Shown here: positions 3,508-21,330 of the stretch, piece after piece | How positions within the stretch are numbered: the stretch's first letter is position 1 | How the letters are laid out: each line of letters starts with the position of its first letter | UHGV virus genome: UHGV-0073881 | Length of the DNA stretch: 64,000 nt | Origin: a virus | Strand: one strand, 5' to 3' | Notes under the pieces: generated by a model | Databases searched by the model: none | What the model was told of the DNA's origin: nothing | Seen by the model: only the letters and a program-made list of their open reading frames with translations | Position numbers and translations under genes: made by a program

Positions 3508-4065
3508 ATGAAATGCTTTCACGGTACTACTCAAGAAAACTTTTTAAACCTCATCAATGGCGGCGAAAAACCTACAGGTGCTTGGAATTGCTCTGATATG
3601 GATGGTTATTTTTACGTATACCCTGTCAGTAAGTTCTGCGACGTAGAAGAGATGGACGAAGAACAAATCACAAATGAAGGGTTGCGCAATGCTCTTGATA
3701 GTGCTACAATCACAGCAGCTATCCAAATGAAAACTCAAAATATTGTTATCTTAGAACTTGAAATTCCAGAAGATGAGTTACAAGATGATTGGTCTTGTGA
3801 GAATATGAGTGACATCGCAAGCTTTACAGAGCACTTTGATAAAGATTGGGTTAAAAAGGTTTATACAACTGAATTCAATGCAATGTATTCACCGTTTTTT
3901 GTTCCTAACTTACAAAATCGTAATTTGGGATATATTGATGAAAAGCTTGAAGAGGTTGCAACATTCATCCAAAATGCCGATGATAGCTCAATCATCTATT
4001 GCAATATGCTGGACGCAATGCAAGAAAGCTTAACAGAAAGCGTTTTAAGCGACGTTTTAGCGTAA
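3508..4065 (+). CDS. hypothetical acidic early protein (185 aa)
   Basis: ORF track; conserved leader. Confidence 0.6.
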   Translation: MKCFHGTTQENFLNLINGGEKPTGAWNCSDMDGYFYVYPVSKFCDVEEMDEEQITNEGLRNALDSATITAAIQMKTQNIVILELEIPEDELQDDWSCENMSDIASFTEHFDKDWVKKVYTTEFNAMYSPFFVPNLQNRNLGYIDEKLEEVATFIQNADDSSIIYCNMLDAMQESLTESVLSDVLA

Positions 4066-4128: not shown

Positions 4129-4365
4129 ATGTTAACAACAATCTATCTCATGCTTGCCGTTTGCTCTGGTGCAAATAATTGTCATTATGGCATTATGGAA
4201 TCTTTCGAAGGCACTAAACAAAATGCAGTAGAGGCTTGCAATATTGCTAGACAGGACTACCCGAAATCGTCTATAATGGACTGTTATGTCTCACAAGGTG
4301 AAGACGAAAGCACAGAATACTACGAAAACGTTAATGAAGATGAATTTTTAGAGATTTACAAATAA
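4129..4365 (+). CDS. hypothetical small protein with N-terminal signal-like segment (78 aa)
   Basis: ORF track; N-terminus MLTTIYLMLAVCSG; RBS AAGGGGA. Confidence 0.5.
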   Translation: MLTTIYLMLAVCSGANNCHYGIMESFEGTKQNAVEACNIARQDYPKSSIMDCYVSQGEDESTEYYENVNEDEFLEIYK

Positions 4366-4635: not shown

Positions 4636-4977
4636 ATGGCATACGTAACAATTATCACTGATAAAGAAAACTCTTCTTGGTCCACACAAGTAAGCGATAA
4701 AATGTCGCCTATGCAATGCCTCAAATACTTTGAGCAATGGAACAGGGGGGAAGATGTAAGCCCTTTCCAAGTAATGCAGGTTGTACATGTTGACAATGAC
4801 GGCAACAAAACTACCCTTAACACTGAATACTATGCTACACGTTTTGAGACTCGCAAAGAAGCTATGCGGGAACTAAGAGAAAAGGGCTATAGTCACATTG
4901 CCGCTTTGATTTGGTCTGATTTGCTTAAAAAACAAGCATTAACCTACGTCAAGCCTGAAAAAATCTTTATAAACTAA
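4636..4977 (+). CDS. hypothetical early protein (113 aa)
   Basis: ORF track; conserved leader. Confidence 0.6.
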   Translation: MAYVTIITDKENSSWSTQVSDKMSPMQCLKYFEQWNRGEDVSPFQVMQVVHVDNDGNKTTLNTEYYATRFETRKEAMRELREKGYSHIAALIWSDLLKKQALTYVKPEKIFIN

Positions 4978-5537: not shown

Positions 5538-7100
5538 ACGTCTATGTAATAGCCCCTCTCAAATGCTTATATAAACCCTTCCCCTGTCCTTTCCAGAATC
5601 TTACAAGACCTTAAAAAGCAATAACTCTATAGCTTACTCTATAACCTCTTATCAAATCAACTTAAATATAAGCCCATAACCCGAAAGGGAAGGGCAATCC
5701 CTTAAACGCTCTATAACGCTCTATAACGGCTTATCAACTCAACTTAACCAATCATATTAACCCACTCTTAAAAGCCCTCTATAGAGCTTCATAGACCCTT
5801 AAAAGAATCTTATAAGGGGTGTAAGCTTTATCATCTCGTTAGTATCTTGTGAATAGTTAAACAGGGGGCTTGTTATTAGCTTAAAAGTATGTTATAGGGG
5901 CTTAAAAGTAGCTATAAAGTTACGTAAAAGTATCGTAAATGCTAGCCCCCTTAACATTTCTTTAACAATTTCTTAACAATCCCTACATAGTTATGCTTAT
6001 TAGAGACTTGTTAGCACCTTGTTAAATCTCTGTTAAGACTATGTTACAACCTTGTTAGATTCTTTGGAGTCCCTATATAAGCCCCTGTAAAGGGCTATAA
6101 AGAGCTATACAGTCAGTTGGGCTATAGTTACTATGGAGAACCTTAGAAATGGCTGTATAGAGCTATACAGGGCTTTTAAGAGGGCTTTTAAGAGAATCAC
6201 TGAGAAAGATAGGGAACTATAGACCAAGAGATAGTGACATGTTAACAGCTTGTTAAAAAGGTTAAACACTTGTTAGGAACTTGTTAATAATCTTAACAAA
6301 ATAACTCTTAACATTTAACTACTCAACTCTTGTTAGCAATCTGTTAAGACTCTGTAAAGACTATGCAACAACTGTTAAGCACTTGTTACAATCTTGTTAG
6401 CTCTGTTAAGGGTCTATTAAGAACTCTGAAGAGATGTTAAGAGGATGTAGTAACTGTTAAGAAATTGTTAATGATATTTTAAGATTTTGCAAAGGGTATG
6501 TTACAGGGATGTTAAGGGCTACCAAGCAGATATACACCCTAGACAGATATTTTTCAGTTCCTTCAAAGAACCTAAATAAAACACTTGACAGTCTATTTTA
6601 TAAAAATTTTATAGAACTGAATAACTATCTATACACTATCTAGTATAAAACAGGTAATAACAGGCTTATAAGATACCTTGTTAGTACCGTGTTAGACCTT
6701 GTAGGATAAGCCTTAGAAGGGAATACCTGTTTAGTGCTATATAACAGTCTATATAGAGGCTTAGTAAACCCTAGTGAACCATCTATAGAGAGTCACATAG
6801 TTAACATAGAGATTAAGATGGGTATAGGAGCTTCTAAGGGGTTGTTAAGATGTTAGGAAGGGGGTTGTATAGGTGGTTAAGAAGGCTTGTTAGAGAGCTT
6901 GTTAGAGGGCTATTTAGAAGGGGCTATACAGTTCACTATATCGAATCACTAGAAAGAGACTAAGAGGCTATATAGATACTATATAATACTATATAGAGAG
7001 TATGCTTAGATAGGTTGTTTAGAAGGGCTAGATATTTTATCACATATCATGGTGACCCAAGATGAACGTAGTGAATCCAAATTTTATAAAATTATAAATT
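5538..7100. repeat. ORF-free repeat-dense region (short TTGTTA / CTGTTAAG / CTTGTTAG and CTATACAG / CTATATAG repeats)
   Basis: no ORF of 60 aa or more on either strand; dozens of short direct and palindromic repeats, densest 5930-6480 and 6650-7000. Confidence 0.6.
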
Positions 7101-8453: not shown

Positions 8454-9151
8454 TCGTTCACCATTGCGTTGTAAAACTGTCTTTGAATTTCTTCAGCAAT
8501 TTGATGAGGTGTCAAACCAGCTTTCAGCATCATTCTCACGGTGTATTCAATATTTCCGTGGTTTACTACTCTGTCAGCGATAAAGGCAGCCTCTTTAAAC
8601 TCTTCAGCTTTCTTCTTAGCGTCTTCACATGCCCCTGTCAAGAGGGAAGAAAACTTTTTATGTGGTGGTAACCAATGATGGTGTGGATTGTTGGAAGTAA
8701 ATGCTTTGAAGAACTCTCCAACATGGTCAACAACTCTTGAATCTCCACCTTTTACATTCAGTTCTGTGGTGTAACGGTTTTCATGCTTTGGTAAATCTTC
8801 AATCTGAAGAATCTTATGAGTAGGCTCAATAGTCACGTCTACAGAACGAATCTTTGGAGTTGTCTGAGATTCTTCGTGACGAATGAACAGAATGTCTTTA
8901 AACTGCCCTGTGAACTGACCACTTGAGTACTCATCAGTAGAGTAGATGATACCTGCGTGTAACACTCCGAGAGTACCTTGTGGGTTATGTCGATAATCTT
9001 TAAACATCAGTTTCTTAAGTGGTCTGAAAAAGATACGCCCAGATTCTGCTACGTGCGTAATCTCAGCCTGAGTAGAATCTTGACCATTGTAACGGTTTCC
9101 TAAAGAAACCTGAATAGTAATCTTGTCACCAGCTTTTGGTTTAGTGTTCAT
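8450..9151 (-). CDS. hypothetical protein (about 233 aa)
   Basis: ORF track 8450-9166; start moved to ATG with GAGGA RBS (MNTKPK). Confidence 0.6.
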   Translation of the reverse strand: MNTKPKAGDKITIQVSLGNRYNGQDSTQAEITHVAESGRIFFRPLKKLMFKDYRHNPQGTLGVLHAGIIYSTDEYSSGQFTGQFKDILFIRHEESQTTPKIRSVDVTIEPTHKILQIEDLPKHENRYTTELNVKGGDSRVVDHVGEFFKAFTSNNPHHHWLPPHKKFSSLLTGACEDAKKKAEEFKEAAFIADRVVNHGNIEYTVRMMLKAGLTPHQIAEEIQRQFYNAMVNE

Positions 9152-15888: not shown

Positions 15889-15917
15889 TTGACAAAGTGT
15901 TTAATACCCTTTAATAT
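15889..15917 (+). promoter_or_regulatory. sigma70-like promoter upstream of tRNA array (TTGACA-N17-TAATAT)
   Basis: -35 TTGACA 15889-15894, 17-nt spacer, -10 TAATAT 15912-15917; inside a hairpin AGGGTATT/AATACCCT. Confidence 0.5.
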
Positions 15918-15978: not shown

Positions 15979-16008
15979 TTGACAAACACTAAAAAATAGT
16001 GTTATAGT
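15979..16008 (+). promoter_or_regulatory. sigma70-like promoter upstream of tRNA array (TTGACA-N17-TTATAG)
   Basis: -35 TTGACA 15979-15984, -10 TTATAGT at 16002-16008, about 28 nt before first tRNA. Confidence 0.5.
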
Positions 16009-16035: not shown

Positions 16036-16112
16036 CTCTGTTTAGCTCAGTTTGGTAGAGCGTTCCGTTTGGGGCGGTAAGGCCAGAGGTTCAAGTCCTC
16101 TAACAGAGACCA
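16036..16112 (+). tRNA. tRNA-Pro (anticodon TGG), isotype tentative
   Basis: acceptor CTCTGTT/AACAGAG, D-stem GCTC/GAGC, T-arm AGAGG-TTCAAGT-CCTCT, anticodon loop TTTGGGG, CCA encoded. Confidence 0.7.
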
Positions 16113-16119
16113 AATTAAT

Positions 16120-16194
16120 GTCGTAGAAGGCAAATGGTTAGCCACCTGACCTTCAATCAGTTGCTCGCGGGTTCGAATCCCGTCTACGACTCCA
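16120..16194 (+). tRNA. tRNA, anticodon TTC (Glu?), isotype uncertain
   Basis: acceptor GTCGTAG/CTACGAC, T-arm GCGGG-TTCGAAT-CCCGT, CCA encoded; anticodon loop CCTTCAA has C at position 33. Confidence 0.6.
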
Positions 16195-16200
16195 AATTTG

Positions 16201-16269
16201 ACAGAAGACCAAATACAGCAAACAACTTTTACTTTTCGCGCATAGAAAACATAAAAAGCTTGGTCTGGT
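16201..16269 (+). repeat. tRNA-array spacer module A (ACAGAAGACC ... ACAGCAA ... GGTCTGGT)
   Basis: conserved 5-prime ACAGAAGACC and 3-prime GGTCTGGT ends with AT-rich core; 4 copies in array. Confidence 0.6.
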
Positions 16270-16279
16270 CATTAAGAAT

Positions 16280-16356
16280 TGCGGGTATAGAGAAAGGGCG
16301 TCTCACATGTCTCATTAGCATGGTATCGGTAGGTTCGACTCCTGCACCCGCCTCCA
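16280..16356 (+). tRNA. tRNA-Met-like (anticodon CAT)
   Basis: acceptor TGCGGGT/ACCCGCC (1:72 mismatch), T-arm GTAGG-TTCGACT-CCTGC, loop CTCATTA, CCA encoded; weak D-stem. Confidence 0.6.
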
Positions 16357-16361
16357 AATTT

Positions 16362-16425
16362 ACAGAAGACCGTTTACAGCAATTCAAACAATTTTATCGG
16401 AAAATTAAAATGAATACGGTCTGGT
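16362..16425 (+). repeat. tRNA-array spacer module B
   Basis: ACAGAAGACCGTTTACAGCAA ... ACGGTCTGGT. Confidence 0.6.
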
Positions 16426-16437
16426 AATGTTAAACAT

Positions 16438-16514
16438 GGTTAGGAAGCACATAAGGCATGTGCGGTCGGCTGTTAACCGAATGGCACAGGGTTCGAATCC
16501 CTGACTAACCGCCA
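16438..16514 (+). tRNA. tRNA-Asn (anticodon GTT)
   Basis: acceptor GGTTAGG/ACTAACC, D-stem GCAC/GTGC, T-arm CAGGG-TTCGAAT-CCCTG, loop CTGTTAA, CCA encoded. Confidence 0.75.
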
Positions 16515-16524
16515 AAATTTAAAT

Positions 16525-16612
16525 GCGTCGTTATCCCGTAGATGGAAGCGGTGGTGACTGTAAATCACTTGTCATTACGACTCGGTAGGTTCGACTCCTT
16601 CACGGCGCACCA
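16525..16612 (+). tRNA. tRNA-Tyr (anticodon GTA), class II with long variable arm
   Basis: 88 nt; acceptor GCGTCGT/ACGGCGC, anticodon stem GGTGA/TCACT loop CTGTAAA, T-loop TTCGACT, CCA encoded. Confidence 0.7.
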
Positions 16613-16618
16613 AATAAA

Positions 16619-16696
16619 GGTTATGTAGTTTAATCTGGTTAAAATACCTCCCTGTCACGGAGGAAGATGTGGGTTCGAATCCCATCGTAACCGCCA
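16619..16696 (+). tRNA. tRNA-Asp (anticodon GTC)
   Basis: acceptor GGTTATG/CGTAACC, anticodon stem CCTCC/GGAGG loop CTGTCAC, T-arm GTGGG-TTCGAAT-CCCAT, CCA encoded. Confidence 0.75.
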
Positions 16697-16754
16697 ATTT
16701 TGAGAAGGGCTTTTTAGCCCCTCCCTTAAAGAGTTCTTGCGAGTATTCTTTAAA

Positions 16755-16835
16755 GGAGCAGAAGACCAAATTCAGCAAGCAACAAAAATATTTCAAGCCA
16801 ATTAATTTGAAAAATTTAAAACTTGGTCTGGTTCC
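16755..16835 (+). repeat. tRNA-array spacer module C
   Basis: GCAGAAGACCAAATTCAGCAA ... CTTGGTCTGGT. Confidence 0.55.
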
Positions 16836-16844
16836 AACAAATTT

Positions 16845-16969
16845 ACAGAAGACCGTTTACAGCAAGTTAAACAATCTAATTCTCTATGAAAGAAAGGGCG
16901 AAGGTTCGATTCCTTCACACGTTACGGCGTGTTGGTGTAATGGCAGCACTTAAGATGATACGGTCTGGT
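16845..16969 (+). repeat. tRNA-array spacer module D, carrying a tRNA-like T-arm and acceptor-like hairpin
   Basis: ACAGAAGACCGTTTACAGCAA ... GAAGG-TTCGATT-CCTTC (16900-16916), ACACG-TTACGG-CGTGT hairpin (16917-16932) ... ACGGTCTGGT; no full cloverleaf. Confidence 0.55.
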
Positions 16970-17118
16970 AATCCTCTTTGCAGTGACTTATGGAGCTAAT
17001 ATATCGTCCCATGAGTGCCGATGAATCTCTTGAGCATGATTCTAGATTAGCTTACTAAGAGATGACTCTACAAACCCTTTAGCAAGGTTTGCGTAGGTTA
17101 CTGCAAAGATGATTTAAT

Positions 17119-17194
17119 GGAAGTGTAGCAGAATGGTGATGCGGCAGACTTTTAATCTGACAGGCGATGGGTTCGAATCCCTCCACTTCTACCA
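17119..17194 (+). tRNA. tRNA-Lys (anticodon TTT)
   Basis: acceptor GGAAGTG/CACTTCT, anticodon loop CTTTTAA, T-loop TTCGAAT, CCA encoded. Confidence 0.7.
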
Positions 17195-17279
17195 AATTCG
17201 CCCTTAATTGAAGAATACCTACTTCGCGGCTGGAAACACCCACGAAAAATCAATTCTTCTCCAAAGGGCAACTTATTAC

Positions 17280-17356
17280 GGTTCAGTCGCAGATAAGGTA
17301 ATGCAAGGGTTTCATAAGCCCTATGAATGTGGGTTCGACTCCCATCTGAACCTCCA
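17280..17356 (+). tRNA. tRNA with anticodon CAT (Met or Ile2)
   Basis: acceptor GGTTCAG/CTGAACC, anticodon stem AGGGT/GCCCT loop TTCATAA, T-arm GTGGG-TTCGACT-CCCAT, CCA encoded. Confidence 0.75.
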
Positions 17357-17358
17357 AT

Positions 17359-17433
17359 TGTGGGTTAGCATAAATGGTAATGCAAACGGCTGATAACCGT
17401 TAGAAGAGGGTTCGATACCCTCACCTACAACCA
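17359..17433 (+). tRNA. tRNA-Ile (anticodon GAT)
   Basis: acceptor TGTGGGT/ACCTACA, D-stem GCA/TGC, anticodon stem AACGG/CCGTT loop CTGATAA, T-arm GAGGG-TTCGATA-CCCTC, CCA encoded. Confidence 0.75.
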
Positions 17434-17448
17434 ATTCCAATAAAGTTG

Positions 17449-17477
17449 TTGACATTAACATGTGACCACTTTATAGT
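17449..17477 (+). promoter_or_regulatory. strong sigma70-like promoter inside tRNA array (TTGACA-N17-TATAGT)
   Basis: -35 TTGACA 17449-17454, 17-nt spacer, -10 TATAGT 17472-17477; followed by about 320 nt with no ORF and no canonical tRNA. Confidence 0.55.
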
Positions 17478-17801
17478 AACTAAAATACTTCATAATATGT
17501 ATAATTCAAACACCAATACATGAGCGTTAGACGTAACACAATGTGGGGAAATTTGTTGTACATATTCTGAATAGTTTTCGTTAGTGTAGCGTCTATTTTG
17601 CAAACTTAAAAATAAATGCAAACGATAATGTTTTTCTGGCAGTAGCTTAATAGGCTAAACACCAGTGAGGTCTTCCAATCCCTCATCAAAGAATTTGGCG
17701 TACTAGCCCACGGTATGATTAATAAAGTGGGCGACATTCTAAAGGGTATCCCTTATGGGGCTTGGCTTAAATGCAATGAGTACCCTTTAAAATGTTAATT
17801 A

Positions 17802-17883
17802 CGGGGCGTATCTCAGCGGTCTTCTAAACCGCCGTTAACCGAGTAAGTGGAGTATGCGGGTTCGAGTCCTGCCGCCTCGACCA
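17802..17883 (+). tRNA. atypical tRNA-like gene (Arg TCT-like anticodon arm), possible pseudogene
   Basis: acceptor CGGGGCG/CGCCTCG, T-arm GCGGG-TTCGAGT-CCTGC, CCA encoded; stem GCGGT/ACCGC with loop CTTCTAA but no canonical D-arm and a 23-nt segment before the T-arm. Confidence 0.4.
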
Positions 17884-17898
17884 ATTTTGGATGAAATC

Positions 17899-18246
17899 AT
17901 GAAGACTTGTATTAGGTGCAAACTTAGCAAGGATGAAAATGATTTCTACATGAAAGATGGTAGGAGAACTCATTCATACTGTAAAAAGTGTGTTAATGAG
18001 CAAACCATAGAAAGACAAAGAGCACTTAAACTTTCAGCTGTTGAGTACAAAGGTGGGGTTTGTCATGATTGTGGTAAAAGGTATCATCCAGCAGTGTATG
18101 ACTTCCATCATTTGAATCCTTCAGAGAAAGATTTTAACATTGGTCATAGAAAAAGTCTTAAGTTCTCTCAGGAGCTAAAGAACGAACTTGACAAATGTGT
18201 TTTGCTATGTTCAAATTGCCATAGGGTAAGACATGCAAAGTATTAG
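17899..18246 (+). CDS. HNH endonuclease (zinc-finger plus HNH) embedded in tRNA array
   Basis: CxxC...CxxC and FHHLNPSEKD...LLCSNCHRVRH motifs; ORF track 17854 start lies inside the tRNA, so start moved to ATG 17899. Confidence 0.8.
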   Translation: MKTCIRCKLSKDENDFYMKDGRRTHSYCKKCVNEQTIERQRALKLSAVEYKGGVCHDCGKRYHPAVYDFHHLNPSEKDFNIGHRKSLKFSQELKNELDKCVLLCSNCHRVRHAKY

Positions 18247-18383
18247 TTAGCAGATTGCTTAGACGACCTTAACGGGTCTCCTGTAAGGAGGTGGTCTGTA
18301 TCTCATGTTTCCAGAGCATGTAAAAATATTCTGAGAAGGGGCTTTACAGTGTTGTGATAATACGGTAAGCTTCGAATTATAAT

Positions 18384-18466
18384 ATGGGACGATGTTAAGA
18401 CTCTAAGGCATGAGCAACGGCTTCCAACACCGTTTCAAAGGGGTTCAACTCCTCCGTCCCATGCCA
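18384..18466 (+). tRNA. tRNA, possibly Trp (anticodon CCA); atypical
   Basis: acceptor ATGGGAC/GTCCCAT, T-loop TTCAACT, CCA encoded; stem AACGG/CCGTT around TTCCAAC; extra nucleotides between acceptor and D region. Confidence 0.45.
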
Positions 18467-18478
18467 AAGTCTTATTAG

Positions 18479-18567
18479 GGGTAGGTAGCGGCTAATGGTA
18501 GCCAAACTGTCTTGAAAACAGTTGCCACTGTAGAGATACGGTGAGGGTTCGACTCCTTTACTTACCG
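18479..18567 (+). tRNA. tRNA-Ser (anticodon TGA), class II
   Basis: acceptor GGTAGGT/ACTTACC, D-stem GGC/GCC, anticodon stem ACTGT/ACAGT loop CTTGAAA, long variable arm, T-loop TTCGACT; CCA not encoded. Confidence 0.7.
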
Positions 18568-18817
18568 CCTAATAAGATTTAAAGCCGCGCTTCGTTCGGA
18601 TGTTGCGTTAGGTTTCACTTCGTGTATTGTCGTACACGATGTTGAGAAAGCACCTAGTAGGTGTCACGGAGAAGAGATAGCATCAAGCTCTCCAAAGGTT
18701 CTAGTCACCGGATTAAACAAGACTATGCAAAGACTGATTAGGTCTTTTTAGATAACTTCTGAGGCAAACTATACCATTGTTGCTTTGGGTCTTGGAAGTT
18801 CTCTACAAAGATTTAAT

Positions 18818-18894
18818 GCACCTATAGCCCAATTGGAAGAGGCAGCAGACTTAGAATCTGTTCAGTGTGAGTTCGACTCTCTCTAGGTGTACCA
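18818..18894 (+). tRNA. tRNA with anticodon TAG (Leu-type anticodon, class I length)
   Basis: acceptor GCACCTA/TAGGTGT, D-arm CCCAATTGGAAGAGG, anticodon stem GCAGA/TCTGT loop CTTAGAA, T-loop TTCGACT, CCA encoded. Confidence 0.6.
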
Positions 18895-18901
18895 AATTAA
18901 T

Positions 18902-18977
18902 GCAGGTGTAGCAAAATGGTTATGCGGCTGACTCTTAATCAGTAAGACGATGGGTTCAATTCCCTCCACCTGTACCA
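18902..18977 (+). tRNA. tRNA with anticodon CTT (Lys?)
   Basis: acceptor GCAGGTG/CACCTGT, anticodon stem GCTGA/TCAGT loop CTCTTAA, T-loop TTCAATT, CCA encoded. Confidence 0.6.
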
Positions 18978-18983
18978 AACATT

Positions 18984-19059
18984 GGGGATGTAGTTTACAT
19001 GGTTAAAACATAAGTTTTGCAAACTTAAGTACAGGGTTCAATTCCATGCTTCTCCACCA
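18984..19059 (+). tRNA. tRNA-Ala (anticodon TGC)
   Basis: acceptor GGGGATG/CTTCTCC with G3:U70 identity pair, anticodon stem TAAGT/ACTTA loop TTTGCAA, T-loop TTCAATT, CCA encoded. Confidence 0.75.
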
Positions 19060-19065
19060 ATTAGT

Positions 19066-19140
19066 GCATCCATAGTTTAAACGGGAAAATTACAGTCTTC
19101 CAAACTGAGGTTGAGGGTTCGATTCCCTCTGGATGCTCCA
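19066..19140 (+). tRNA. tRNA-Gly (anticodon TCC)
   Basis: acceptor GCATCCA/TGGATGC, T-arm GAGGG-TTCGATT-CCCTC, anticodon loop CTTCCAA, CCA encoded. Confidence 0.75.
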
Positions 19141-19146
19141 ATTCAT

Positions 19147-19222
19147 GCTCCTATCGTATAACTGGCTATTACGGTTGTCTTGTAAGCAACTTATCAGGGT
19201 TCGAATCCTTGTGGGAGCACCA
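19147..19222 (+). tRNA. tRNA-Thr (anticodon TGT)
   Basis: acceptor GCTCCTA/TGGGAGC, D-stem CGTA/TACG, anticodon stem GTTGT/GCAAC loop CTTGTAA, T-arm CAGGG-TTCGAAT-CCTTG, CCA encoded. Confidence 0.7.
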
Positions 19223-19316
19223 ATTTGAGGTCAAGTGAAAGACCGCTTGAGTCAACTGAAGACCGTAACAAATTCCACGGAGTTGAGTTAGCGGCACAAC
19301 TTCAGACCTCTTTAAA

Positions 19317-19391
19317 GCTCGCTTAGTTTATATGGTAAAGCCCCATCCTTACAAGTTGGTGAAGAAGGTTCAAGTCCTTCAGCGAGTACCA
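19317..19391 (+). tRNA. tRNA-Val (anticodon TAC)
   Basis: acceptor GCTCGCT/AGCGAGT, T-arm GAAGG-TTCAAGT-CCTTC, anticodon loop CTTACAA, CCA encoded. Confidence 0.7.
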
Positions 19392-19392
19392 A

Positions 19393-19470
19393 GTTCCAGT
19401 ATCCCAATTGGCAGAGGATGCAAGCTCAAACCTTGTATTAGTGACGGTTCGAATCCGTCTTGGAACACCA
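19393..19470 (+). tRNA. tRNA with anticodon CAA (Leu-type anticodon, class I length)
   Basis: acceptor GTTCCAG/TTGGAAC, D-stem ATCC/GGAT with loop CAATTGGCAGA, anticodon stem GCAAG/CTTGT loop CTCAAAC, T-arm GACGG-TTCGAAT-CCGTC, CCA encoded. Confidence 0.65.
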
Positions 19471-19487
19471 AATTTTAGGAGATTCCT

Positions 19488-19700
19488 ATGAAGCCTTATG
19501 GTAGACACGGTAAAGTTGAAATTGCAAGTTGTGGTTGCTGTGCTTCTCACGATGGTGAAGAAGATTACTACAAGTGGCGTACAGACCATCGTAGACGCTT
19601 TCTCAGAAGAGATAAGAAGAAAGCTAGACAGGAATCTCGAAAAGATATTGCAGAATTAGTTCAAATGGATAGAGCAGCAACCTACGAAGTTGTTAGTTAG
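19488..19700 (+). CDS. hypothetical small basic protein (70 aa); 3-prime end overlaps tRNA-Arg
   Basis: ORF track; RBS AGGAG 7 nt before ATG; last 50 nt overlap the tRNA at 19650. Confidence 0.35.
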   Translation: MKPYGRHGKVEIASCGCCASHDGEEDYYKWRTDHRRRFLRRDKKKARQESRKDIAELVQMDRAATYEVVS

Positions 19701-19723
19701 GGGTTCGAATCCCTTATTCTGCA
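19650..19723 (+). tRNA. tRNA-Arg (anticodon ACG)
   Basis: acceptor GCAGAAT/ATTCTGC, D-stem GTTC/GAGC, anticodon stem GCAAC/GTTGT loop CTACGAA, T-arm AGGGG-TTCGAAT-CCCTT; CCA not encoded. Confidence 0.75.
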
Positions 19724-19744
19724 CAAATTTTAGAAGGTAATTAT

Positions 19745-19972
19745 ATGCGTAAACTCATTATTGAAAGGCATAAAGATGCTGACAAGATTGAAACAACACA
19801 AGTTGGGGACACTGACTTCATTCTTGTAGGTTGGAAATGTGACCCAATAGCAGCTATGAAGGTTGTTCATGGTTTTGCAGGAATTGAATTTAATCAAATC
19901 ATATTTGAAACGCTATTACCAGAAAATCAGGATACGTGTAATAACGCATATATCCTGACAAGAGTTCGTTAG
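19745..19972 (+). CDS. hypothetical protein (75 aa) between tRNA genes
   Basis: ORF track; ATG start; stop abuts tRNA-Gln. Confidence 0.4.
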   Translation: MRKLIIERHKDADKIETTQVGDTDFILVGWKCDPIAAMKVVHGFAGIEFNQIIFETLLPENQDTCNNAYILTRVR

Positions 19973-20046
19973 GGGATTAGTTTACAAGGTTAAAACCTCG
20001 GTCTTTGAAATCGAAGAAGTTGGTTCAATTCCAACATCCCCCGCCA
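19971..20046 (+). tRNA. tRNA-Gln (anticodon TTG)
   Basis: acceptor AGGGGAT/ATCCCCC (1:72 mismatch), anticodon stem TCGGT/ATCGA loop CTTTGAA, T-arm GTTGG-TTCAATT-CCAAC, CCA encoded. Confidence 0.7.
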
Positions 20047-20048
20047 AT

Positions 20049-20127
20049 GCTCCATTACTCCAATTGGCAGAGAGGCCAGACTTAAAATCTGTGTTATGTA
20101 TCGGTTCGAATCCGATATGGAGTACCA
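20049..20127 (+). tRNA. tRNA with anticodon TAA (Leu-type anticodon, class I length)
   Basis: acceptor GCTCCAT/ATGGAGT, D-arm CCAATTGGCAGAG, anticodon loop CTTAAAA, T-arm ATCGG-TTCGAAT-CCGAT, CCA encoded. Confidence 0.65.
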
Positions 20128-20133
20128 AATATT

Positions 20134-20209
20134 AGCAGTGTAGCATAACTGGCAATGCTCCAGCCTCTGAAGCTGAAAGATTAAGGTTCAAATCCTTACA
20201 CTGCTGCCA
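20134..20209 (+). tRNA. tRNA with anticodon CTG (Gln)
   Basis: acceptor AGCAGTG/CACTGCT, D-stem GCAT/ATGC, anticodon loop CTCTGAA, T-arm TTAAG-GTTCAAAT-CCTTA, CCA encoded. Confidence 0.65.
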
Positions 20210-20240
20210 CTTCTAAGGGTTCTTACGAGAGTCCTTAAAT

Positions 20241-20317
20241 GTGGCCTTATCATAAATGGATAATGACCCATGCTGTGAACATGGTCTATACGGGTTCGAT
20301 TCCCGTAGGTCACCCCA
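20241..20317 (+). tRNA. tRNA-His (anticodon GTG)
   Basis: acceptor GTGGCCT/AGGTCAC with C73, D-stem TCAT/ATGA, anticodon stem CCATG/CATGG loop CTGTGAA, T-arm ACGGG-TTCGATT-CCCGT, CCA encoded. Confidence 0.75.
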
Positions 20318-20324
20318 ATTTTAA

Positions 20325-20401
20325 TAGCTCAATTAGCTTATATGGTTAAAGCGCGTGTCTGAAAAACATGAGAACAGGGTTCAAATCCCGATGGGCTACC
20401 A
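20325..20401 (+). tRNA. tRNA-Phe (anticodon GAA), irregular acceptor/D junction
   Basis: anticodon stem CGTGT/ACATG loop CTGAAAA, D-stem GCTT/AAGC, acceptor TAGCTCA/TGGGCTA, T-loop TTCAAAT, CCA at 20399-20401. Confidence 0.6.
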
Positions 20402-20417
20402 ACTTTATAGGTGCATA

Positions 20418-21152
20418 ATGAAAGAGATGACAGGACAAGGTAAAGAGATTTTCAATCTCCTTAAATCCGGTAACGGGTTCTCTAACCCTCTTATTACTGG
20501 TGCAGCAGTTCTTGGTGGTACAGTTGCTGCTTCTCAGTCATTAATCACTTCAATTAGTTCTGTATCAGACCCAGCTACCCAGCAAATCCTTATTGCTGCT
20601 GGCTTGACAACTGCCTTACTAAGCAGCTTTACAACAAGCCTTGGTAGCACCACTTCAACGACAACTACTTTAACTGACTATGGACAGAAGTCTGTAGATG
20701 AGTTTTCACAGCGTATGCAGGTAGCCAAAGGATACTCTAATGTTATGGGAGCAGCGGGTGAACAAGTTGGATGTACACCGTTTAGTGGAATCATGGGAGT
20801 TGCTACTGAATACGGTAACAAGGCTATGGATTTGATTAACACCTCCATAGATGCCGTAAACAGCGTTCTAAGCGACTTACAGGATGCAATTGATAAAGGA
20901 CTAGCAACCATCTCTGACCTCGCTACACAAGCTGTTACAGCGATTAATGAAGGTATGGCAAAGATTACTGCCTACGCTAATGAAGTGGCTCAGATGATTG
21001 CAGACGAAGCAGCAATGATTGCAGAGTATCTAAAAACCAATATTAATGGTTTCCTTGCAAATGTTTTACCAGATTGGTTTAACGATGATTGTAAGACGGG
21101 TGTAATTGATACAATTGCAACTCCAGAGATGAAAGAAGCTCTAAACAAATAA
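20418..21152 (+). CDS. hypothetical Ala/Ser/Thr-rich protein embedded in tRNA operon (about 244 aa)
   Basis: ORF track 20355-21152; start moved to first ATG after tRNA-Phe (MKEMTGQ) with AGGTG RBS. Confidence 0.6.
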   Translation: MKEMTGQGKEIFNLLKSGNGFSNPLITGAAVLGGTVAASQSLITSISSVSDPATQQILIAAGLTTALLSSFTTSLGSTTSTTTTLTDYGQKSVDEFSQRMQVAKGYSNVMGAAGEQVGCTPFSGIMGVATEYGNKAMDLINTSIDAVNSVLSDLQDAIDKGLATISDLATQAVTAINEGMAKITAYANEVAQMIADEAAMIAEYLKTNINGFLANVLPDWFNDDCKTGVIDTIATPEMKEALNK

Positions 21153-21155
21153 TTT

Positions 21156-21248
21156 GGAAGATTAACCCTAAAAGGTAAGGGAGCAGTTTGCTAAACTGCC
21201 AGTAGCTGAGAAATTGGTGTACCAGTTCAAGTCTGGTATCTTCCTCCA
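21156..21248 (+). tRNA. tRNA-Ser (anticodon GCT), class II
   Basis: 93 nt; acceptor GGAAGAT/ATCTTCC, D-stem CCC/GGG, anticodon stem GCAGT/ACTGC loop TTGCTAA, long variable arm, T-arm ACCAG-TTCAAGT-CTGGT, CCA encoded. Confidence 0.75.
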
Positions 21249-21254
21249 AATTTT

Positions 21255-21330
21255 GCATTGGTGTCAGAAATGGATATGTACCTGTCTGCAAAACAGGTTT
21301 ATGAGGGTTCGAGTCCCTTCCAATGCTCCA
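21255..21330 (+). tRNA. tRNA-Cys (anticodon GCA)
   Basis: acceptor GCATTGG/CCAATGC, anticodon stem CCTGT/ACAGG loop CTGCAAA, T-arm GAGGG-TTCGAGT-CCCTT, CCA encoded. Confidence 0.8.

Follow-up and report, generated by a model that had tools for sequence, protein, structure and literature searches.

Ro60 and its Y RNAs form a conserved, poorly understood RNA-surveillance system, and its link to counter-defence in phages is recent. Bacterial Y RNAs lie within 4 kb of the Ro60 gene and on the same strand, one of them is tRNA-like, and in Deinococcus a Y RNA tethers Ro60 to PNPase (Chen et al., 2014; PMC4201824). For Thermus phage phiLo, binding of Ro60 to two adjacent Y-like RNAs (Yrl1, Yrl2) and to host PNPase was shown experimentally (PMC12135203). 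In a 2024 preprint (PhageMaP; PMC11482910), the protein gp130 of phage Bas63 was noted to resemble Ro60 and to act against the defence system Ppl; it was also guessed there that certain tRNA genes of the phage might be Y RNAs, and no RNA was identified. A further group of small RNAs to be compared are the Class I RNAs of social amoebae, in which a short stem joins the two ends, an 11-nt box, CCUUACAGCAA, lies by the 5' strand, and a 5' G and a 3' CUGU are conserved (Kjellin et al., 2021; PMC7919456). Being abundant and under developmental regulation, these RNAs have been reported to be restricted to Dictyostelia, and their known direct binder is the RRM protein Rnp1A/CIBP (PMC7919456). Here we describe four repeated spacers, called modules M1 to M4, in the tRNA array of a Felix O1-like myovirus. 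The DNA analysed was a stretch of 64,000 nucleotides (64 kb) of virus genome UHGV-0073881, referred to as the window. It is close to certain that the modules are structured, functional RNAs of a conserved family. As judged by sequence comparison and predicted structure, they are probably the RNA partners of a Ro60-like protein encoded directly upstream, i.e., a phage counterpart of the Y RNAs of animals and bacteria.

The tRNA array of the window is located on the plus strand and spans positions 16036-21330 according to ARAGORN and Rfam. Four repeated spacers among its tRNA genes had been reported in a preliminary description of the DNA, and an exact search showed that they are real and that the coordinates given for them were right. 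The signature AGAAGACC-N5-CAGCAA occurs at 16203, 16364, 16760, and 16847, and is followed in register on the 3' side of each copy by GGTCTGGT (at 16262, 16418, 16825, and 16962). The 14-base signature is absent elsewhere in the window. When up to two mismatches were allowed, one extra match was found on both strands of the 64 kb, while 0.58 were expected. Repeat finding placed the four 5' halves in one repeat family, D8, and their 5' strands read (A/G)CAGAAGACC(AA/GT). Sequences and folds gave one common layout, consisting of an outer helix of 4-5 bp, an internal loop, an inner helix of 7 bp, a 2-nt linker, the box, and an A/U-rich interior of 38-96 nt (Table 1). The internal loop is asymmetric, with AGA on the 5' side opposite G on the 3' side, and is invariant in all four modules. 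M1 and M3 have AGACCAA/TTGGTCT as their inner helix, M2 and M4 have AGACCGT/ACGGTCT; in each case all seven pairs form within the module, and the changes between the two versions are compensatory. The shared ends and the ACAGCAA box were thus present as described before, with the corrections that the box of M3 is TCAGCAA and that the full spans are longer by the outer helix. The minimum free energy fold of M2 had a z-score of -2.5, and that of M3, which holds both helices, had a z-score of -2.2. Each RNA closes via its bulged terminal helix and exposes the single-stranded (A/U)CAGCAA box.

Table 1. Positions of the gene, promoter-like sites, modules, and structural elements in the window, and matches of the covariance model R2.
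Feature	Position	Strand	Details
Ro60-like protein gene, 471 aa	14455-15870	+	Ends 329 nt before M1
Promoter-like site 1, ahead of tRNA-Pro	15889-15917	+	TTGACA-17-TAATAT, sigma-70-like, 10/12 consensus
Promoter-like site 2, ahead of tRNA-Pro	15979-16008	+	TTGACA-18-TATAGT with TG, sigma-70-like, 11/12 consensus
Module 1 (M1), short type	16199-16271	+	Outer helix 16199-16202/16268-16271 (T16199-C16202 with G16268-A16271); AGA 16203-16205 opposite G 16267; inner helix 16206-16212/16260-16266; box ACAGCAA 16215-16221
Module 2 (M2), short type	16360-16427	+	Outer helix 16360-16363/16424-16427; AGA 16364-16366 opposite G 16423; inner helix 16367-16373/16416-16422; box ACAGCAA 16376-16382
Module 3 (M3), short type	16755-16835	+	Outer helix 16755-16759/16831-16835; AGA 16760-16762 opposite G 16830; inner helix 16763-16769/16823-16829; box TCAGCAA 16772-16778
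Module 4 (M4), long YrlA-like type	16843-16971	+	Outer helix 16843-16846/16968-16971; inner helix 16850-16856/16960-16966; box ACAGCAA 16859-16865
M4 weak anticodon/V-like hairpin	16880-16896	+	
M4 T arm	16900-16916	+	GAAGG-TTCGATT-CCTTC
M4 acceptor-like stem, closed by loop	16917-16921/16928-16932	+	Sits where a tRNA has its acceptor stem
M4 D arm	16935-16949	+	GTGT-AATGGCA-GCAC
R2 match on M4	16846-16971		57.3 bits, E 7e-10, end to end, top match in 64 kb
R2 match on M2	16363-16427		25.2 bits, E 0.004
R2 match on M1	16202-16271		18.9 bits, E 0.08, exact boundaries
R2 match on M3	16759-16833		13.3 bits, E 1.2

Two further claims about the repeats were modified. The partly complementary ends had been taken as possibly placing either each module or the tRNA between two modules in a stem. 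Each module does lie in its own stem, while a stem enclosing the intervening tRNA was not supported, given the compensatory changes within modules and the tandem modules of distant phages, which pair with themselves despite different stems. A partial fifth copy had been indicated as well (ACTGAAGACCGTAACAA, 19255-19271; repeat family D20), and this turned out to be a resemblance only, having neither the CAGCAA box nor the 3' strand. It sits in a separate hairpin at 19227-19310 (GAGGTC...GACCTC, z -3.35) within the spacer 19223-19316, and was not found by the covariance model R2 described below. This element may be a decayed module or something unrelated, and it was not counted as a module.

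Matches to the tRNA region of the window were obtained in 290 phage records, most of them from Felixounavirus and Mooglevirus (85-93% identity), and the nearest relative by protein is Escherichia phage pEC-M719-6WT.1. We compared eight relatives from these two groups, namely Bas63, FO1a, Sf18, LMP25, JLBYU32, BPS17L1, SP22, and ESCO50. Orthologous modules were placed by synteny and are hence free of the bias of a stem search. The modules were found at the same sites between the same tRNAs in all eight phages, with ESCO50 keeping M1 and M2 only; M1 is syntenic in eight of the relatives and M3 in seven. The module ends and the box are near-invariant, while the interiors drift or are replaced, and M1 has two unrelated interiors among the relatives with the same ends kept. 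The second pair of the M2 outer helix covaries, being A-U in six phages and G-C in three, and the second outer-helix pair of M3 is either G-C or G-U. Single changes in the inner helix yield G-U pairs in Sf18 and SP22, and the acceptor-like stem of M4 switches from ACACG/CGTGT to ACTCG/CGAGT among the Felixounaviruses. Two of the checks proposed in the preliminary description, alignment across related phages for covariation and fold prediction, gave motifs in place with a covarying outer-helix pair in the former case, and modules closing on themselves in the latter. In Erwinia phage Coenus no CAGCAA was found anywhere in the 3.7-kb syntenic tRNA array and no Ro-like coding sequence at that position, both statements being limited to that region. 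Two stretches in Coenus, at about 4238-4258 (aactttaatGGTCTGGTcaaat) and 4905-4940 (gaAAGACtaCCGT...gCCGTCTGGTat), resemble decayed module ends. They look like relics, as if the RNAs had decayed following gene loss.

The gene upstream of M1, which had been overlooked before together with the tRNA-like domain of M4, encodes a protein carrying the Pfam domains DUF2828 and DUF7788, with Pfam matches to PF25043 (4.7e-43) and PF11443 (3.9e-27), and it also matches PHROG 850, annotated as 'RNA-binding protein' (4e-175). A sequence search of this protein against PDB gave no match. An AlphaFold model was built on 45 homologues and had a pLDDT of 90.7. The 12 best PDB fold matches of the model were all Ro60, Rsr, or phage Ro60, and covered the full length, at E about 1e-8 and with TM values of up to 0.68; they comprised Xenopus and human Ro60, Deinococcus Rsr, and Ro60 of Thermus phage phiLo, with isolated vWA domains trailing far behind. 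According to the model, the protein has the Ro60 fold. It is 83.7% identical to gp130 of Bas63 (bas63_0130). By tblastn the protein family was found in 710 of 50,697 phage records from many host groups. The Ro-like DUF2828/DUF7788 fold is also found in giant viruses of protists, and Pfam's description places the DUF2828 family in eukaryotes too.

Twelve phage lineages were inspected by hand, the twelfth being the Felixounavirus group itself. In all 12, a closing stem followed by NCAGCAA adjoins the gene homologue on the gene's strand, at protein identities of 30-54% and usually in two to nine tandem copies up- or downstream. The other lineages were represented by Yersinia phage P778 (54% protein identity, four modules), Vibrio ValKK3 (45%, a leader element only), Aeromonas LAh_6 (42%, about nine modules upstream), Cronobacter S13 (41%, one long module downstream of the gene), Campylobacter F357 (38%, two modules directly upstream), Sinorhizobium phiM12 (38%, two to three modules), Mycobacterium MiniMac (34%, three modules directly downstream), Enterococcus EFGrKN (32%, three modules), Bacillus Thrax3 (32%, five modules), Listeria P100plus (31%, three modules upstream), and Staphylococcus BE02 (30%, three modules downstream). 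Stem sequences vary freely across the lineages with the pairing kept, and a G directly follows the 3' strand in 26 of 34 curated modules. The pattern of the family is a terminal helix, a linker of 0-3 nt, a single-stranded NCAGCAA, and a variable interior with or without a domain of T, acceptor-like, and D arms; all four modules of the window fit it. No annotation exists for these RNAs, apart from cases in which they have been mistaken for odd tRNAs or hypothetical proteins.

An independent set consisted of 65 metagenomic viral loci with 38-45% protein identity, of which 2.5 kb around the gene was searched with a strict pattern (stem of at least 7 bp, linker of up to 3 nt, NCAGCAA, loop of 15-150 nt). 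The pattern matched 67 times on the gene strand, against 20 times on the opposite strand and 11.3 times in shuffles, and at least one match was present in 37 of the loci. The heptamer ACAGCAA alone was found 91 times on the gene strand and 23 times on the opposite one. Most of the pattern matches lay within about 600 nt of the gene ends, as read from the listed coordinates.

In contrast to the three short modules, M4 has a tRNA-like domain in its interior, in which a T arm, an acceptor-like stem, and a D arm follow each other. One long module of this kind was found in most lineages examined. When nine long modules from six lineages were folded with RNAalifold, the closing stem, the T arm, and the acceptor-like stem were recovered. 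Of 18 pairs, 16 showed compensatory changes, and the T arm had no broken pair; the T arm and the acceptor-like stem had not been used in the selection of modules. A covariance model, R2, was built from seven long modules of Cronobacter, Mycobacterium, Enterococcus, Bacillus, and Sinorhizobium phages, i.e., without any Felixounavirus sequence. Its best match in the window was M4 (Table 1). In the metagenomic loci, all 12 matches of R2 with E below 0.01 were on the gene strand. M4 was also considered as a true tRNA, and this was rejected, as the acceptor-like stem is closed by a loop, the Rfam tRNA model (RF00005) gave 26.9 bits on a partial alignment, which is below 29, and ARAGORN made no call. 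Indeed, ARAGORN called none of the modules, in agreement with the earlier statement that they are not tRNAs.

The modules resemble YrlA and YrlB, known from Salmonella and Mycobacterium smegmatis among others (RF02553), in their location beside a Ro60-fold gene on the same strand and in the pairing of their 5' and 3' ends into a terminal helix. M4 has the domain order of YrlA, with T arm, closed acceptor-like stem, and D arm, and as for YrlA there is one such RNA per genome; the three shorter modules, which have no tRNA-like domain, correspond to YrlB. With the YrlA model of Rfam, long modules of other phages scored 30-48 bits in their tRNA-like domain (E 1e-7 to 6e-4 for the five strongest; gathering score 69); the alignments took in the T, acceptor-like, and D parts but not the outer stems. 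Unlike YrlA, the modules carry the (A/U)CAGCAA box by the 5' strand and the AGA/G loop where YrlA has CGAA, they are placed within a tRNA array, and their putative partner gene is of another kind than TROVE. The locus also resembles that of phiLo, since in both a phage Ro60-fold protein is accompanied by at least two stem-closed small RNAs beside its gene. However, phiLo has a canonical Ro60 and CGAA-type RNAs, and the partnership proposed for the window is a predicted one. With metazoan Y RNAs (RF00019) there is a likeness in outline, as in those the bulged terminal helix is the Ro60 site and the variable interior engages other proteins, but no sequence or Rfam similarity was seen, and metazoan Y RNAs are Pol III transcripts without a tRNA-like domain. 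The array is best read as one YrlA-like RNA, M4, and three short Y-like RNAs within a tRNA array, all from a family that is widespread, lacks annotation, and is tied to DUF2828 genes of the Ro60-like type. Small RNAs had been among the functions listed in the preliminary description, and this is the option favoured here. We set the system outside the YrlA family as a variant of the Ro/Y RNA kind, because the CGAA-type motif is absent, the Rfam scores are sub-threshold, and the protein belongs to another Pfam family.

The modules would be co-transcribed with the tRNAs from the candidate promoters at 15889 and 15979. Going by consensus matches alone, these are likely the start of the transcript carrying tRNAs and modules, and the next strong promoter-like site after them is at 17449 (17449-17477). 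Internal promoters, another function suggested earlier for the modules themselves, were not supported, as there was only a single weak match to the consensus (9/12), inside M2. The modules could be freed from the transcript by the enzymes of tRNA processing, with RNase P cutting at the 5' end of the next tRNA and subsequent 3' trimming to the terminal helix. The invariant bulged helix and the box would then be the candidate binding site of the Ro-like protein, given their co-occurrence with its gene, and the fact that the short modules share them without having a tRNA-like part points to one common ligand. The tRNA-like domain of M4 may recruit a tRNA-recognising, RNA-degrading, or RNA-repairing partner to the Ro ring, or act as a decoy, by analogy with YrlA, Yrn1 of D. 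radiodurans, and Yrl of phiLo. The probable role of the complex in infected cells is RNA quality control, RNA repair, or counter-defence; the RNA ligase genes nearby in Listeria and Aeromonas phages and the anti-Ppl role of gp130 fit such RNA surveillance, repair, or counter-defence.

Some further elements were observed around the Ro-like genes of other phages. Two normal-order tRNAs lie just downstream of the gene in Cronobacter S13, at 5896-6016 (annotated 'tRNA-Ser', 121 nt) and 6026-6138 ('tRNA-OTHER', 113 nt). In both the anticodon arm is replaced by an insert with a hairpin (CAAACT...AGTTTG) followed by TATTCAGCA(C/T), that is, a box-like element in a different topology. A ROOL RNA (86 bits, E 8e-16, just under the gathering score of 99) was found in Listeria P100plus at 926-1477, between tRNA genes. 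It precedes the module array and the Ro-like gene by about 1 kb, and an RtcB-type RNA ligase gene is located 1.3 kb downstream of these. In Aeromonas LAh_6 an Rnl2 RNA ligase gene is near the Ro-like gene. Enterococcus EFGrKN has a repeat of about 45 nt (ggttttgacatatgtcatagttccaacc...ccggaacataaagaa) ahead of each of its three modules, at 1860-1905, 2040-2090, and 2222-2272, which may be a promoter or a further structured element. In two phages a module-like element is present in the leader of the Ro-like gene, right at its start codon. In Vibrio ValKK3 this is a module-like 5' half, AAGACATTTT-ACAGCAA, at 3964-3990, and in Sinorhizobium phiM12 a mini-module at 2392-2434, which scored 27.5 bits with a second covariance model, R1, made from the spliced core of the short type (stem, box, stem, with the interior removed). 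Both leader elements are hints of autoregulation by the Ro-like protein.

Several observations speak against the modules being partners of the Ro-like protein. The CGAA motif (GNCGAAN0-1G), which marks the Ro site of known bacterial and phage Y RNAs, is absent from the modules, and no match to any Rfam Y RNA or to YrlA was obtained on 16190-17290, even at E 10. The protein is of the DUF2828/DUF7788 type and not Pfam TROVE. The Dictyostelium look-alike is bound directly by an RRM protein (PMC7919456), and therefore the box alone does not imply a Ro-like partner. Among the modules of the window, the R2 match on M3 was not significant. Model R1 gave no significant match in the window, where M2 came first with E 0.08 and the 5' part of M4 second with E 0.5; this model holds too little information and often mis-paired the 3' strand elsewhere. 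When full-length short modules were aligned with MAFFT, the 5' halves were aligned and the 3' strands were not. No strict-pattern module was present within 2.5 kb in 28 of the 65 metagenomic loci, which may be due to the strictness of the pattern or to real absence. Finally, the 40 curated modules are 96% paired, and this value is biased and not considered as independent evidence, since the stem was a selection criterion. We relied instead on the syntenic orthologues, on the arms outside the selection, and on the strand-controlled counts.

The alternative that survives best is nevertheless an unlikely one. It holds that the modules are tRNA mimics or self-acting small RNAs, such as decoys for tRNA-targeting defence nucleases or sponges for host proteins, which are merely co-inherited with the Ro-like gene. 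The tRNA-like domain of M4 would suit such RNAs, as would the company of tRNAs, RNA ligases (RtcB-type in P100plus, Rnl2 in LAh_6), and ROOL RNA in other phages, and the direct binding of the similar Dictyostelium RNA by an RRM protein. Such independence is at odds with modules adjoining the Ro-like gene on its strand in phages of hosts from Actinobacteria to Campylobacter, irrespective of what else is nearby, and with the invariant helix and box in the three short modules, where the tRNA-like part is missing.

Considerably less probable is that the modules are a punctuation of the tRNA precursor, with stems to be cut by RNase III or RNase E and no function as free RNAs. Their position between tRNAs in the window, with helices at the ends, could be read in this way, and processing signals were among the functions listed in the preliminary description. 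However, tandem modules have no intervening tRNA in Staphylococcus BE02, Mycobacterium MiniMac, Campylobacter F357, and Listeria P100plus, and therefore they are not tRNA-processing signals as such. Most tRNA junctions of the window are without modules, the Erwinia phage Coenus processes a similar array without them, and a cleavage stem needs neither a conserved single-stranded box nor a tRNA-like domain.

Only slightly behind in probability are cis-regulatory elements, by which the Ro-like protein would control its own expression or that of neighbouring genes. The leader elements of ValKK3 and phiM12 are in line with such control, and so is the location of the array between promoter and gene in several Gram-positive phages. 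In the window, MiniMac, BE02, and S13, on the other hand, the modules are downstream of the gene, and in the window they are behind separate candidate promoters. As this explanation still has the protein binding the RNA, it extends the proposed partnership more than it competes with it. That the modules are decayed tRNA genes, or a selfish repeat resembling miniature inverted-repeat transposable elements that spread in the tRNA region, is very improbable. The 26.9 bits of M4 with the tRNA model and the four similar copies within 800 bp could be read in this way, but the explanation is largely refuted by ends and box conserved while interiors drift, helices kept by compensation, the absence of target-site duplications and of copies elsewhere in the genome, and the conservation of the family across host phyla. 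Short peptides starting TED(Q/R)xQQ, suggested by a frame that reads through the 5' motif, are refuted in practice, since the only open reading frames over the modules (16134-16427 and 16669-16953) lack a start context and extend across tRNA genes, length differences between orthologous modules are not multiples of three (M2 measures 60, 62, 64, 65, or 66 nt), and the variation of the modules is compensatory at the RNA level.

Apart from tRNA, the only Rfam family to match the short modules was RF01414, Dicty_Class_I_RNA, which gave 23-30 bits in three phage lineages. The scores were 28.4 bits for M2, 25.7-29.6 for modules of LAh_6, 23.1 for P100plus, and 16.9 for M1, all below the gathering score of 41.5; M3 and M4 gave no match to this family. 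The phage versions of the Class I box are (C/U)UUACAGCAA, CUACAGCAA, or AUACAGCAA. M2 and M4 share UUACAGCAA with the amoebal box (9/11), M1 shares UACAGCAA, and M3 shares CAGCAA. M2 and M4 have all five of the positions that are near-invariant in Dictyostelia (U3, C6, C9, A10, A11), while M1 and M3 have four. Written as stem, linker, box, and 3' strand, the curated D. discoideum Class I RNAs read GTTGAC-CTT-ACAGCAA...GTCAAC-TG, and the corresponding phage sequences read GGATGC-CT-ACAGCAA...GCATCC-TG in Cronobacter S13, GGGTAT-TT-ACAGCAA...ATACCC-TG in Campylobacter F357, and GACCGT-TT-ACAGCAA...ACGGTC-TG in M2. Common to both groups are the 5' G of the stem, a 3' strand ending in C followed by UG, a variable A/U-rich interior, and a size of about 50-70 nt. 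The phage-derived pattern fits 27 of 34 distinct D. discoideum Class I sequences. In an nhmmer search with a Class I profile, phage modules filled the top 15 places, with E values of 0.17 or worse and with partial circularity through the shared box. By a rough estimate, a chance origin of a shared box of 7-10 nt in the same structural position, together with the same ends and size, is unlikely.

The two groups differ in their genetic setting. Class I RNAs are eukaryotic multi-copy, independent genes with a DUSE promoter element about 60 nt upstream and are not known to be linked to a Ro-like protein, while the modules lie in a phage tRNA operon behind sigma-70-like promoters. DDB_G0281243 is one protein from the Class I RNA pull-down, and peptide motifs of the DUF2828 family were not found in the partial proteome files of the Class I paper. 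The resemblance in architecture and box would fit common descent and convergence alike, and it does not by itself demonstrate a DUF2828 protein in Dictyostelium. We regard it as a tentative idea, rather doubtful at present, that the short modules and the Class I RNAs are the same kind of RNA and are both ligands of Ro60-like DUF2828/DUF7788 proteins.

The tRNA array of the window contains some other features. Three tRNA genes were missed by ARAGORN and detected by Rfam: a tRNA-Glu at 16120-16191 (53.7 bits), a tRNA-Tyr-like gene with a long variable arm at 16527-16607 (22.8 bits, sub-threshold), and a gene at 17802-17880 (31.7 bits). Within 17560-17800 there is a frame for a tmRNA-type tag, ANDNVFLAVA*, at 17609-17641 (GCA AAC GAT AAT GTT TTT CTG GCA GTA GCT TAA); the tag of E. 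coli tmRNA is ANDENYALAA, and the strong promoter-like site at 17449-17477 precedes the block. The same block gave weak Rfam matches to tmRNA (25.9 bits) and permuted tmRNA (13.6 bits) and no ARAGORN call, and it is kept in Erwinia phage Coenus at about 6040-6200. It may be a phage tmRNA-like gene. Two non-tRNA spacers are strongly folded and matched no Rfam family, at 16970-17118 (149 nt, -50 kcal/mol, z -5.9) and 17195-17279 (85 nt, -25 kcal/mol, z -5.7). The loop of the latter, CGCGGCTGGAAACACCCAC, is also found in Yersinia phage P778 at about 8905-8975.

A description of ACAGCAA-box RNAs or of RNA partners of DUF2828 proteins was not found in the literature, our coverage of which is incomplete, so that an earlier description is possible. 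By the present results, the published guess that some tRNA genes of the phage Bas63 might be Y RNAs is redirected to unannotated spacers with exact boundaries and a candidate binding site. Should the modules be the partners of the Ro-like protein, they would form a second sequence class of Ro partners and show RNA recognition co-varying with the Ro fold, and a part of the 'dark' space in phage tRNA regions would be explained. If the more doubtful link to the Class I RNAs is true as well, a second, hidden ribonucleoprotein system of the Ro/Y type would span from phages to eukaryotes. Class I RNAs would then have a testable protein partner and DUF2828 proteins an RNA partner, and two long-standing puzzles would become one question.

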